Assembly (NCBI GenBank): GCA_049698775.1
Contig: JBAVYM010000049.1
Coordinates: forward strand, 41,958-105,957
Origin: Gammaproteobacteria bacterium
GTDB taxonomy: Bacteria; Pseudomonadota; Gammaproteobacteria; Natronospirales; REEB76
Direction of reading: 5' to 3'
Length of the DNA stretch: 64,000 nucleotides
The translations under genes and the position numbers were made by a program. Positions 31,388 to 48,087 of the stretch are shown here, in pieces. Numbering within the stretch: the stretch's first letter is position 1; each line of letters opens with the position of its first letter. The notes below the pieces were generated by a model that did not search any database, had not been told where the DNA came from, and worked only from the letters and a program-made list of their open reading frames with translations.

Positions 31388-31762
31388 ATGTTCAAACATC
31401 TTTTGTCCAAACTGCGGCTGCCGGGATTGGCAGCCCCTCTGCTGCTCGGGTTGTTTTTGGCGCAACCCGCTCAGGCCATGCTCGGCTCCACCCCATTGCA
31501 GATAGGTCGCGGCCTTATCCAGAACATTGACTACCTGCACCATGCCATCACCGTGAACGGCCAGACCTACGCGGTTTCGCCGCAGGCGAAGTTCAGTGGC
31601 ATCGCGGCTTTTTCGGTGCTGCACATCGGCATGCCGATCAGCTTTGCGTTGGACAACGCACCCGAGAAAACACCGGCCACTGATCCCTCGGTCCCCGTGC
31701 AAACCAGCAGCGATACACCACTCGAAATCGTGCAAATCACCTGGCTGCCGGGCGGCGTGTAG
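31388..31762 (+). CDS. small secreted protein at the pilY2 position (cassette 1), unknown function
   Basis: ATG 31388 is preceded by AAGGAGA. 124 aa with signal peptide ...AQPAQA. Conserved core IQNIDYLHHAITVNGQTYAVSPQAKFSGIAAFSVLHIGM is shared with 39098..39445. Confidence 0.7.
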   Translation: MFKHLLSKLRLPGLAAPLLLGLFLAQPAQAMLGSTPLQIGRGLIQNIDYLHHAITVNGQTYAVSPQAKFSGIAAFSVLHIGMPISFALDNAPEKTPATDPSVPVQTSSDTPLEIVQITWLPGGV

Positions 31763-31780
31763 ACCAGCAACGGGTGCGAC

Positions 31781-32209
31781 GTGTGCGACCAGCATTGGAA
31801 ACTGCGTGGTTTCTCGCTCATCGAGCTGATGATCGTGCTGGCGATCATCGGCGTGATTGCCGCCATCGCCTATCCGTCCTACGAACGCTCGGTGCTCAAG
31901 TCGCACCGCTCGGATGCCGAGAACCTGCTCAGCAACGACGCCCAGATCCTGGAACGCTGCTATACCCAGAACTTCTCTTACAGCGCAGCCTGTACCCCGA
32001 CCTTGGCCACGTCCACGCAATACCACTACTACACCCTGACCCGGCCACCCACTACGGTCGCGGCCACCACCTACGCCCTCACCGTCACCGCGATTGGTAA
32101 TCAGTTGAACGACACCGATTGCCACAGTTTCAGCATTGATAACACCGGCAAGAAGACCGCCCTGAATTCCGGCGATACCGACAATTCCACCGTCTGCTGG
32201 AACCAGTAA
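31781..32209 (+). CDS. pilE: type IV minor pilin PilE (cassette 1)
   Basis: 142 aa, GTG start, KLRG|FSLIELMIVLAIIGVIAAIAYPSY, C-terminal disulfide-loop cysteines. Confidence 0.85.
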   Translation: MCDQHWKLRGFSLIELMIVLAIIGVIAAIAYPSYERSVLKSHRSDAENLLSNDAQILERCYTQNFSYSAACTPTLATSTQYHYYTLTRPPTTVAATTYALTVTAIGNQLNDTDCHSFSIDNTGKKTALNSGDTDNSTVCWNQ

Positions 32210-32386
32210 TTCCAGCCGCCGCGGGCCGTGCAGCCCGCGTTCCATCCGGCCCAGCCAGCCCTTTTCATAATCCGCCTGACGCGGCCTGAATCCCTTCCAG
32301 GTTGGATTATTGCGTTTATAAGCGTATTTATAACTCATTGTTTAATAAAGATATTTATATTCATATCCATTTATCGTAAAATAAAT

Positions 32387-47100: not shown

Positions 47101-47724
47101 ATCGTGTATTTCGGCACTGGCCAGCTTCTGGGTACACCGGACTTGAGCACCACCGGTACCCAGACTTTCTACGGTGTCTGGGACAAGCCGGGCTTGTCGA
47201 GCGTTCTCACGCGCAGCAATCTGGAGCAGCAAACCCTGTCCGCCCCCACGCCGGGTCCTGCCGGCACCACGGTGCGGACGGTGACCAGCAATACGATCAA
47301 CTGGAGCAGCCAATACGGTTGGTATGAAGACCTGTCCATTTCCGGCGAGCGCGTGGTCACGAATCCGCGGCTCGAGAACAGCGCGGTGGTATTCACCACC
47401 TACGTGCCTACCACCAGTAGTTGCGCGGTGGGCGGCGCCTCCTGGCTGCTGGCGGTCAATTTCAAGAACGGCGGCTCGTTCCCCAGTCCGGAACTGGACC
47501 TGAACGGCGACGGCAGCCTGAACTCTGGCGACCAGGTGGGCGGGCAGAATCCGGTGGGCCTGTACCTGGGAGCGGTGTATTCCGCGGCACCTACCGTCAT
47601 CTCGGCCAGTTTGGGCAGCGTAAAAGCTGTCAAACTGGTATCCGAATCCAGCGGCGCCATCAAGGCGGTCGGCCAGGCTGGTCCGCCCAGCCAGCGTCAA
47701 TCGTGGCGGGAAATTCAAAACTAG
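44194..47724 (+). CDS. pilY1: PilY1 tip-associated adhesin, cassette 3 (short form)
   Basis: 1176 aa. Same C-terminal propeller blocks (MLYVGANDGMLHAID, VYAGDLQGNLWKV). EF-hand-like loop DLNGDGSLNSGD at 47497..47532. Lacks the roughly 180-190-aa insertion of copies 1 and 2. Confidence 0.9.
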   Translation: MNRQVAVKVVFVKAGVATLAAVLTASIGVISLPAFAATPVVSISNIPLTLVAPAHPQVILAVPNSQSMDGDLSGAIMTGSGASSIPSQLGSSSSPVDFTVPAGFTPPVSGGIAGSSQPYTSVIGGNQVDNSPSRLNVAKSAIQAILDSFVGSTDFGLLTYNTGAPTLYNTWLYAMSNAGGFTFSNTNTPAPPLGEYIANPCYNIPSGNTVYTDCNSMKALLGANLLTMPYMLVQFSSDDPDINDVLYAGGEAPVCLVYGAVNPANPYTHYTLGDYNDGGITVTYGSNINACANTTGPTNAGFVPFQPQTMYMQRGFGYYTTATDNTGNLLLSLQTAGNNPTPAQIAATIAKFTPYLQPETNNTGSGEIKAVAVQSPIAGILKRAVAYYATNPPSSNGCPPQRYVIMITDGLPTEDLSGKNWPPLGSAAAQSSPNGYGVSATFNGDGSLNTTTDQALTDTIAQLAALKAAGVKTYIVGVGAGVDPALNPQAAATLTAMAMAGDTSNYYAATSPAQVALDMTAILSAIEAANMSTSSAAVNSTGLKAGAVAYQAQFTSADTPWQDWTGNLVAYPILANGTVSTTTPLWSSQTQLDLQSPANRIIATWDPAVSTGIPLEWCSSLCGAGSIDSSTALGLDLMTSPTDLLGSARLNYLRGVHSDEQQFAGGTFRNRSHVLGDIVDSNPLFVGPPNGPFQDPSYISFELAQASRAPMLYVGANDGMLHAIDPSTGNEKFAYVPNGVFTNLINLTKPTYNQNHQFFVDGSPTSGDVQFSDSSWHSILVGGLNAGGNSIYALDVTNPAAITSESALASDVLWEYSDPSGLLGLTYSQPFIARTNVTGSNFVVFFGSGYNNSDGNPYLYAVNAQTGTLLARINLCASVAPNPCNSGLPNGLSSPVALNSGGALSLPDDTVYAGDLQGNLWKVNISNSNPASWTVQLLFQARDSSGNPQAITVAPVVSLHPNFPRDTGTIVYFGTGQLLGTPDLSTTGTQTFYGVWDKPGLSSVLTRSNLEQQTLSAPTPGPAGTTVRTVTSNTINWSSQYGWYEDLSISGERVVTNPRLENSAVVFTTYVPTTSSCAVGGASWLLAVNFKNGGSFPSPELDLNGDGSLNSGDQVGGQNPVGLYLGAVYSAAPTVISASLGSVKAVKLVSESSGAIKAVGQAGPPSQRQSWREIQN

Positions 47725-47763
47725 GCGCAGCGAGCCCGGCGCTTGCTGCAGGAGGTTGGACAA

Positions 47764-48087
47764 ATGTCGAGAGCATTCAAACCCGTATTCATCGTGGCAG
47801 GTCTGCTCATGGCTGCTTGCCTGTGCTCCGGAGCGTTCGCGAGCTACGCAGTGCCCGATGAGAACATCGGGACCGGCACCATCCAGGCGGTGGACTATGT
47901 CAACCATACCGTTACTGTGGCGGGCCATGTGTACCGGATTTCCCCCAAGGCTGCCTACTCAGACAACGGCAAGAATGCCGGCGTCTTGCAACCCGGCGTG
48001 AAAATCCAGTTCACCTCGAATGGCCCGGTGAATAATCCCGGCTCGCGCATCGTCAATATCGTTGTGCTTCCTCCGGCATCGGACTAA
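47764..48087 (+). CDS. small secreted protein at the pilY2 position (cassette 3)
   Basis: ORF 47743..48087; ATG 47764 follows GGAGG. Signal peptide present. Core IQAVDYVNHTVTVAGHVYRISPKA is a divergent paralogue of the other two. Confidence 0.65.
   Translation: MSRAFKPVFIVAGLLMAACLCSGAFASYAVPDENIGTGTIQAVDYVNHTVTVAGHVYRISPKAAYSDNGKNAGVLQPGVKIQFTSNGPVNNPGSRIVNIVVLPPASD

Follow-up and report, generated by a model that had tools for sequence, protein, structure and literature searches.

The window analysed here, a 64-kb stretch found unchanged in a contig of the metagenome-assembled genome (MAG) of an uncultured 'Gammaproteobacteria bacterium', contains three tandem minor-pilin cassettes, each with a small open reading frame (ORF) between pilY1 and pilE. 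The products of these three ORFs (copies 1, 2 and 3), which are labelled hypothetical proteins in the MAG, are very probably true PilY2 homologues within the DUF5666/CusF-like barrel superfamily and not mere occupants of the pilY2 slot. The genes are very probably genuine, under selection and part of the PilY2 family, and the best overall explanation, which we consider rather likely, is that they encode PilY2-family periplasmic barrels acting on the cognate PilY1. They are divergent additions to a known family, for which a Pfam entry and a solved structure pre-exist, and no new kind of component.

The three ORFs, each with a Shine-Dalgarno sequence and a predicted signal peptide and each located between pilY1 and pilE, were all recovered as described in the initial annotation (translation, sequence reading and Pfam; Table 1). 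In a six-frame hidden Markov model (HMM) search of the window exactly three ORFs matched, one per cassette, copy 1 with 156 bits; the MAG protein WCC11_08010 has the same sequence as copy 1. At the N-terminus of all three copies (residues 1-30, 1-28 and 1-26 of copies 1, 2 and 3, respectively), a basic stretch, hydrophobic residues and a site of the AxA type, compatible with a Sec-type signal peptide, were read by eye, and the predicted cleavage would occur between AQA and M in copy 1, ALA and M in copy 2 and AFA and S in copy 3. A lipoprotein reading of copy 3, based on its LMAAC sequence, was judged unlikely, the cysteine not being kept in relatives and the AFA site coming after it. The motif G-x-(I/V)Q-x-(I/V)DY-x-x-H-x-(I/V)TV-x-G-x-x-Y-x-(V/I)SP-x-A, proposed earlier as a shared core, was found in all three copies. 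The 39-residue core that copies 1 and 2 were said to share but for three conservative substitutions is indeed identical at 36 of 39 positions, the differences being I/V, N/D and I/V. BLASTP aligned copy 1 with copy 2 at 58% identity (E 1e-40) and with copy 3 at 35% identity (E 5e-13). On the minus strand, a 321-residue ORF with an ATG start (31373-32338) runs antisense to copy 1 and to pilE of cassette 1; it was ascribed to the G+C content of 60% and set aside, homology, synteny and dN/dS (the ratio of non-synonymous to synonymous substitution rates) all favouring the plus strand gene.

The Pfam family PF14481 (Fimbrial_PilY2) matched copies 1, 2 and 3 with 20.0, 19.8 and 21.2 bits, respectively (E 2e-4 to 6e-4), and the matches covered the same profile region in all copies, positions 8-53 or 8-72 of 75 (8-72 for copy 3). 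A protein 56% identical to copy 3 (P0073) passes the PF14481 threshold, with 33.2 versus 25 bits. This threshold is an operational cut-off of a narrowly built model; even a Pseudomonas-like positional orthologue (P0224) scores only 23.8 bits. An NCBIfam scan gave no match for any of the three copies. A profile of 71 relatives (A2, the profile of type A, the form represented by copies 1 and 2) was searched against 1.84 billion representative proteins. The 165 matches fell into two groups, single-domain secreted proteins of about 100 residues and multi-repeat proteins. Among 38 single-domain relatives scanned, 22 matched PF14481, 12 DUF5666 and two CusF (PF11604), and several of the multi-repeat matches scored as DUF5666, CusF and PilY2 together. 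The two strongest multi-repeat matches, P0076 and P0078, are Ig-like/fn3 repeat proteins and were discarded as probably spurious motif matches. Three further profiles were used: a broad family profile including copy 3 (A3), a distant group (A4) and a further subgroup (A5). The search for homologous proteins returned 23 matches with A3 and two with P0224, with no P. aeruginosa sequence among them.

The link to the P. aeruginosa protein was evaluated with the PilY2 crystal structure (PA4555; 3TDQ), whose sequence was partly recovered from an hmmsearch alignment and then used for hhalign. The broad profile A3 matched this partial sequence with E 4e-5 and a probability of 70% over 64 co-linear columns. 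When the PDB was searched with the family profiles by hmmsearch, PilY2 appeared at E 0.24-1.6, and no significant match to PilY2 came from searching the PDB sequences with A2, A4 and P0224. Two results weigh against the assignment: all three copies remain under the gathering score of PF14481 (19.8-21.2 versus 25 bits), and the type A profile A2 alone gave no significant hhalign match to the 3TDQ sequence (E 0.058). Because of the latter, copies 1 and 2 are linked to PilY2 via copy 3, with the BLASTP match given above, and via the distant group A4, which A2 matches in hhalign with a probability of 99%; judged from these alignments, the connection of the two type A copies would thus be transitive only.

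AlphaFold2 (AF2) models of copies 2 and 3 predicted a five-stranded small barrel behind the N-terminal signal peptide, which is modelled as a helix. The strands were placed at residues 37-46, 51-54, 57-68, 81-86 and 104-110 in copy 2 and at residues 35-44, 49-52, 55-65, 80-85 and 95-101 in copy 3, and the barrel of copy 1 at about residues 39-120, its final strand being preceded by a Pro-rich insertion. The copy 3 model has a predicted local distance difference test score (pLDDT) of 88.7 and a predicted template modelling score of 0.69; that of copy 2 has a pLDDT of 76, the Pro-rich loop before the last strand being at low confidence. The Foldseek comparison suggested in the initial annotation was run on both models. 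Against 350,542 PDB chains, copy 3 retrieved the two chains of P. aeruginosa PilY2 (3tdq_A and 3tdq_B) first and second and then CusF; the matches to 3TDQ had E 6e-4 to 8e-4, a template modelling (TM) score of 0.66-0.71 and a root mean square deviation of 2.5-2.9 Å. With copy 2, CusF came first and 3tdq_B fourth (E 1.3e-2, TM 0.62). As modelled, copy 3 has the fold of the PilY2 crystal structure. The ORFs had been presented as occupants of the pilY2 position; this slot is confirmed, and the PF14481 matches together with 3TDQ as top match of copy 3 argue for a relation that is more than positional.

Like PilY2 of P. aeruginosa, the window gene directly follows pilY1 and precedes pilE in a minor-pilin operon, and its product is a non-pilin of the same size class with a predicted Sec signal peptide, a predicted five-stranded barrel and a co-linear profile match. 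Unlike it, the window proteins, which are about 20% identical to the P. aeruginosa protein, stay under the Pfam gathering score, the type A copies have a variable-length Pro-rich loop, a DYLHH motif and a WLPGG C-terminus, and three paralogues in tandem cassettes are present instead of a single pilY2. The host, moreover, is a gammaproteobacterium that has not been cultured, and the loci closest to its own carry the label Natronospirales.

A vague resemblance to small beta-barrels of the DUF5666 type had also been noticed earlier, and it proved correct at the superfamily level, as indicated by the DUF5666 matches, the AF2 barrel and the profile search. DUF5666 (PF18914) domains occur as single or tandem repeats in envelope proteins, and copies 1 and 2 match them weakly (E 1e-3 to 0.06), with 14 and 19.5 bits versus a gathering score of 27; the PF18914 scan gave no match for copy 3. 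The window proteins differ from DUF5666 proteins in being below the threshold, single-domain and tied to pilY1; we know of no pilus link of DUF5666 proteins. The second neighbouring family consists of the CusF/SilF Cu(I)/Ag(I) metallochaperones (PF11604; 2VB2, 1ZEQ, 8BBZ), which are likewise periplasmic, with about 80 residues in the mature form and an oligonucleotide/oligosaccharide-binding (OB)-like barrel (Foldseek E 1e-3 to 3e-3, TM 0.6-0.67). The PF11604 scan gave no match for the window copies, and the window family differs from CusF/SilF in that the metal ligands are not kept and the cus/sil gene context is absent.

The resemblance to CusF raises the possibility that the three proteins are periplasmic metal binders that handle copper or silver, or that supply or sense metal for PilY1. 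CusF is the top PDB fold match of copy 2 and the second of copy 3, weak profile matches to SilF/CusF were obtained (E 0.009-0.1) along with PF11604 in two relatives, the D-Y-L-H-H motif is nearly invariant in type A, and PilY1 is a calcium-regulated protein (PMC4064291). However, in a weak alignment to the SilF HMM (E ~0.01), the CusF ligands (His, Met-x-Met and a Trp in an insertion) correspond here to Gly, Pro, Ala and a deletion. The HH motif is moreover found only in type A, copy 3 having N-H and the broad family no conserved His, and no copper or silver efflux genes are adjacent in the window. A metal-handling function is therefore regarded as very improbable.

The PF07963 (N-methylation) scan gave no match in the three copies, whereas all neighbouring pilins match, so that the window proteins are not pilins. 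This separates them from the Acinetobacter 'PilY2' (ComE), a pilin-like competence factor encoded in the slot between comC/pilY1 and comF/pilE (PMC8811193, PMC10374093). ComE shares the name in some annotations and the operon slot, but the window proteins have a predicted Sec-type signal peptide instead of the N-methylation/pilin motif. The common name is a collision and does not reflect homology.

The role of pilY2 in P. aeruginosa is disputed (PMC10191384, PMC4064291, bioRxiv 10.64898/2026.09.03.749161). Alm 1996 described it as necessary for piliation (cited in PMC10191384 and PMC2680260); it was 'proposed to be a pseudogene' by Giltner et al., 2010, as cited in PMC4064291. Transposon sequencing in strain PA14 revealed a strong twitching defect for pilY2 (PMC6321873), which could be due to polarity on pilE. 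Proteomics has detected the PilY2 protein (PMC8959810, PMC12730115). A preprint of 2026 describes a clean pilY2 deletion with near-wild-type piliation and pilus activity, 2-5 times lower cyclic AMP (cAMP) and an altered pilus polarity (bioRxiv 10.64898/2026.09.03.749161).

Selection was estimated by the Nei-Gojobori method between the window paralogues. The dN/dS ratios are 0.25, 0.42 and 0.57 with a saturated dS of 1.2-1.7, the latter indicating that the paralogues are old yet intact. Over the 39 core codons of copies 1 and 2, 11.5 synonymous versus 3.5 non-synonymous changes were counted (dN/dS 0.06). Gene conversion was considered as the source of this near-identical core and rejected: the proportion of synonymous differences in the core (pS 0.32-0.46) is comparable to the pilY1 background and the non-synonymous one (pN) is 0.06, in agreement with selection and not with recent gene conversion. 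The three genes are under purifying selection. Identity between cassettes is nevertheless lower for the small protein (59, 36 and 32%) than for PilY1 (56-65%) and PilE (82-89%); it is the least conserved and fastest-evolving cassette protein, with a dN of 0.70 to cassette 3. The description of the protein as conserved was thus overstated.

These data bear directly on the alternative that the ORFs are decaying relics or pseudogenes carried along with the cassette, a view put forward for P. aeruginosa pilY2 in the work of Giltner et al. quoted above. The low conservation relative to the other cassette proteins and the near-normal piliation of the P. aeruginosa deletion would suit such relics. 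Nevertheless, all copies are intact with a Shine-Dalgarno sequence and a predicted signal peptide, the dN/dS values all lie below 1, with 0.06 in the core, although dS is saturated, the gene is intact in about 40 cassettes of several lineages, the predicted fold of copy 3 is confident and the P. aeruginosa protein has been detected by proteomics. Decay is therefore extremely improbable, and the earlier argument from intact paralogues in all cassettes holds in so far as the genes are genuine, selected and intact in every related cassette examined.

Gene order was also compared with other genomes; scans for related loci were run with A2 (185,579 species genomes) and A5 (metagenomes). In all of about 40 related and distant cassettes the small gene lies directly 3' of pilY1, even where pilE is missing or the operon layout differs. 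The A2 scan gave only 11 loci, in a few MAGs labelled Gammaproteobacteria or Natronospirales, which indicates that type A is restricted to one clade. Close relatives on long contigs carry two or three cassettes at the corresponding aidB-gshA locus, with the small gene after each pilY1, and tblastn gene-order maps of loci L001-L017 placed it 20-200 nt 3' of every pilY1 with a visible 3' end. In L007, L008, L009 and L012 the gene is kept though no pilE follows; in these cassettes (L007 6001-7105; L008, L009, L012) the next gene is fimU of the following cassette. Distant single-domain relatives, 25-30% identical to copy 3, are located directly between pilY1 and pilE in unrelated genomic surroundings. 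In one of these distant loci (L022), pilE is followed by ispH-FKBP-lspA-ileS-ribF, an order which we take to be that of the P. aeruginosa PA4556-PA4561 neighbourhood. The A5 metagenome scan gave 22 loci, with pilY1 immediately upstream in 17 of the 17 that have more than 510 nt of upstream sequence; no pilE is found downstream, and 9 of the 22 have a GspH/FimU-like gene on the other strand instead. This layout, an opposite-strand GspH/FimU-like pilin gene after pilY1-pilY2, was seen in a distant subgroup with an SYGAFTML motif (L030-L032, L034-L036, L039, L045, L046). In L005 (4558-7963), a short pilY1 was called as three fragments (204, 639 and 136 residues), pointing to frameshifts or assembly errors, and the downstream PilY2-like gene is intact.

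The constant neighbour is thus pilY1 and not pilE. A lack of conservation beside pilY1 elsewhere had been named as a result that would speak against a functional component; the gene was found to adjoin pilY1 in distant relatives and in other operon layouts. These maps also bear on the proposal that the small protein works with PilE or the minor-pilin core (FimU-PilVWX) instead of PilY1, and that the slot between pilY1 and pilE merely reflects operon history. The gene adjoins pilE as well in the window and in most relatives, and in the mirror-tree analysis its product correlates with PilX as strongly as with PilY1. Against this, the four related cassettes listed above lack pilE but retain the gene, pilY1 precedes it in 17/17 loci of the distant subgroup with no pilE downstream, and PilE evolves in concert between cassettes (dS 0.27-0.48) whereas the small gene diverges with the variable module. 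A partnership with PilE or the minor pilins is accordingly held to be improbable. That the gene strictly adjoins pilY1, also where pilE is lacking, speaks for a role linked to PilY1, and the genes are probably tied functionally to PilY1 rather than to PilE.

Two forms of the small protein were distinguished. Copies 1 and 2 belong to type A, a variant restricted to one clade and marked by a Pro-rich loop of variable length inserted ahead of the final strand, by an (I/V)DYLHH motif and by a C-terminus of the ITWLPGG type. Copy 3 represents type B, a compact form that lies near the Pfam family and is closest to P. aeruginosa PilY2. In the window and in related loci including L001, L003 and L005, the long PilY1 (1402-1432 residues in the window) is always paired with type A, and the short PilY1 (about 1170-1225 residues), which lacks roughly residues 143-331 of the long form, with type B. 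Phylogenetically, the pairing of long PilY1 with type A and of short PilY1 with type B represents two lineages and not many independent events.

Taken together, the three ORFs are very probably paralogous and putatively expressed members of the PilY2 family, Sec-exported to the periplasm, with a mature part consisting of one five-stranded OB/CusF-like barrel. They probably arose by tandem multiplication of the whole fimU-pilVWX-pilY1-pilY2-pilE cassette, followed by divergence along with the cassettes. The broadly invariant positions of the family are glycines and hydrophobic residues, and no conserved catalytic or metal-binding residues were found in the family alignments; since adjacency to pilY1 is conserved as well, the barrel is inferred to be a non-enzymatic binding module in the periplasm. 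It may stabilise or hold the cognate PilY1, or a PilY1/minor-pilin priming complex, or adjust its loading or signalling. A barrel acting on PilY1 would explain why this small exported protein is encoded once per pilY1, directly 3' of it. Direct binding of PilY1 as a chaperone or cofactor is plausible, at less than even chances.

Two observations fail to support a dedicated PilY1 partner. In mirror-tree and partial Mantel analyses of 14 cassettes, the small protein correlated equally (r ~0.8) with PilX, PilY1-N and PilY1-C, and the distances of PilX and PilY1-C correlated at r 0.94; since all the genes have a common cassette history, the test is uninformative on a partnership with PilY1. In addition, the near-normal piliation of the P. 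aeruginosa pilY2 deletion makes an obligatory chaperone role unlikely, at least in that species. Such a role is uncertain, and a modulatory PilY1-linked role fits best.

The same deletion may point to a regulatory rather than structural function, in which the protein would tune PilY1-dependent or Pil-Chp signalling (cAMP, polarity) without chaperone-type binding or stabilisation of PilY1. The wild-type-like pilus activity, the lowered cAMP and the altered polarity of this mutant (bioRxiv 10.64898/2026.09.03.749161) are compatible with such a function, as is the missing PilY1-specific co-evolution signal. It is harder to reconcile with a periplasmic barrel of 80 residues, which has no evident link to cytoplasmic signalling except via an envelope partner, and one copy per pilY1 with strict adjacency suits a cassette-specific partner better than a general regulator. 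This regulatory function, which overlaps with the PilY1-linked barrel proposed above, is rather unlikely.

The three cassettes are located between an aidB-like acyl-CoA dehydrogenase gene and gshA (Pfam scans). In each, pilY1 (PF05567) lies 5' of the ORF and a PilE-type pilin gene (PF16732 and N_methyl) 3' of it; gene content differs among the cassettes at 32442-33032 and 40574-41823 (Table 1). The spacer between pilY1 and the ORF is only 39-44 nt in cassettes 2 and 3, versus an unusually long 125 nt in cassette 1, where it is filled by a GC-rich nested palindrome resembling repetitive extragenic palindromic (REP) elements and unique in the window. The three pilE paralogues have a dS of only 0.27-0.48, other cassette genes showing about 0.8-2, and their similarity suggests either concerted evolution or gene conversion, or a constant adaptor common to three variable PilVWX-PilY1-PilY2 modules.

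Table 1. Minor-pilin cassettes, PilY2-family genes and associated features of the window.
Feature	Coordinates	Strand	Description
Cassette 1			fimU-pilV-pilW-pilX-pilY1-ORF-pilE; PilY1 1402 aa
Cassette 2			As cassette 1 without the GspH/FimU-type gene; begins with pilV; PilY1 1432 aa
Cassette 3			As cassette 1 with two GspH-type genes (fimT- and fimU-like); PilY1 1176 aa
Copy 1, PilY2-family gene of cassette 1	31388..31762	+	124 aa; type A; PF14481 E 5e-4, DUF5666 E 0.06
Copy 2, PilY2-family gene of cassette 2	39098..39445	+	115 aa; type A; PF14481 E 6e-4, DUF5666 E 1.2e-3
Copy 3, PilY2-family gene of cassette 3	47764..48087	+	107 aa; type B, compact; PF14481 E 2.3e-4
Shine-Dalgarno AAGGAGA of copy 1	31375..31381	+	6 nt 5' of ATG; read from sequence
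Shine-Dalgarno GAGG of copy 2	39086-39089	+	8 nt 5' of ATG; read from sequence
Shine-Dalgarno AGGAGG of copy 3	47750-47755	+	8 nt 5' of ATG; read from sequence
pilY1 of cassette 1, long form, 1402 aa	27054..31262	+	PF05567 E 5e-45; directly 5' of copy 1
pilY1 of cassette 2, long form, 1432 aa	34755..39053	+	PF05567 E 4e-45; 44 nt 5' of copy 2
pilY1 of cassette 3, short form, 1176 aa	44194..47724	+	PF05567 E 2e-48; 39 nt 5' of copy 3
pilE-type minor pilin, cassette 1	31781..32209	+	PF16732 and PF07963; 3' neighbour of copy 1
pilE-type minor pilin, cassette 2	39461..39889	+	PF16732 and PF07963; 3' neighbour of copy 2
pilE-type minor pilin, cassette 3	48097..48531	+	PF16732 and PF07963; 3' neighbour of copy 3
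GC-rich nested palindrome, REP-like	~31304..31364 (approximate)	+	RNA fold -46.7 kcal/mol, z -2.1

Of all the genes in the classical minor-pilin operon, pilY2 is understood the least. A broader proposal, which we regard as doubtful, is that PilY2-family barrels are universal cassette-specific partners of PilY1 in the periplasm, each devoted to the tip adhesin as a chaperone or loading factor, with a specificity that has co-diverged with its PilY1. If true, this would explain both the separate copy for each pilY1 in several lineages and the conflicting P. aeruginosa pilY2 data, and the three-cassette locus would be a natural specificity panel, with two pairs of type A and long PilY1 and one pair of type B and short PilY1. 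No new kind of system is revealed by the present analysis, which widens the family past what the Pfam model recognises and offers experimenters a concrete hypothesis, the binding of the cognate PilY1. The comparative evidence, with old intact paralogues under purifying selection and strict adjacency to pilY1 across divergent lineages, favours a real PilY1-linked function and presents PilY2 as a selected companion of pilY1 rather than a pseudogene.

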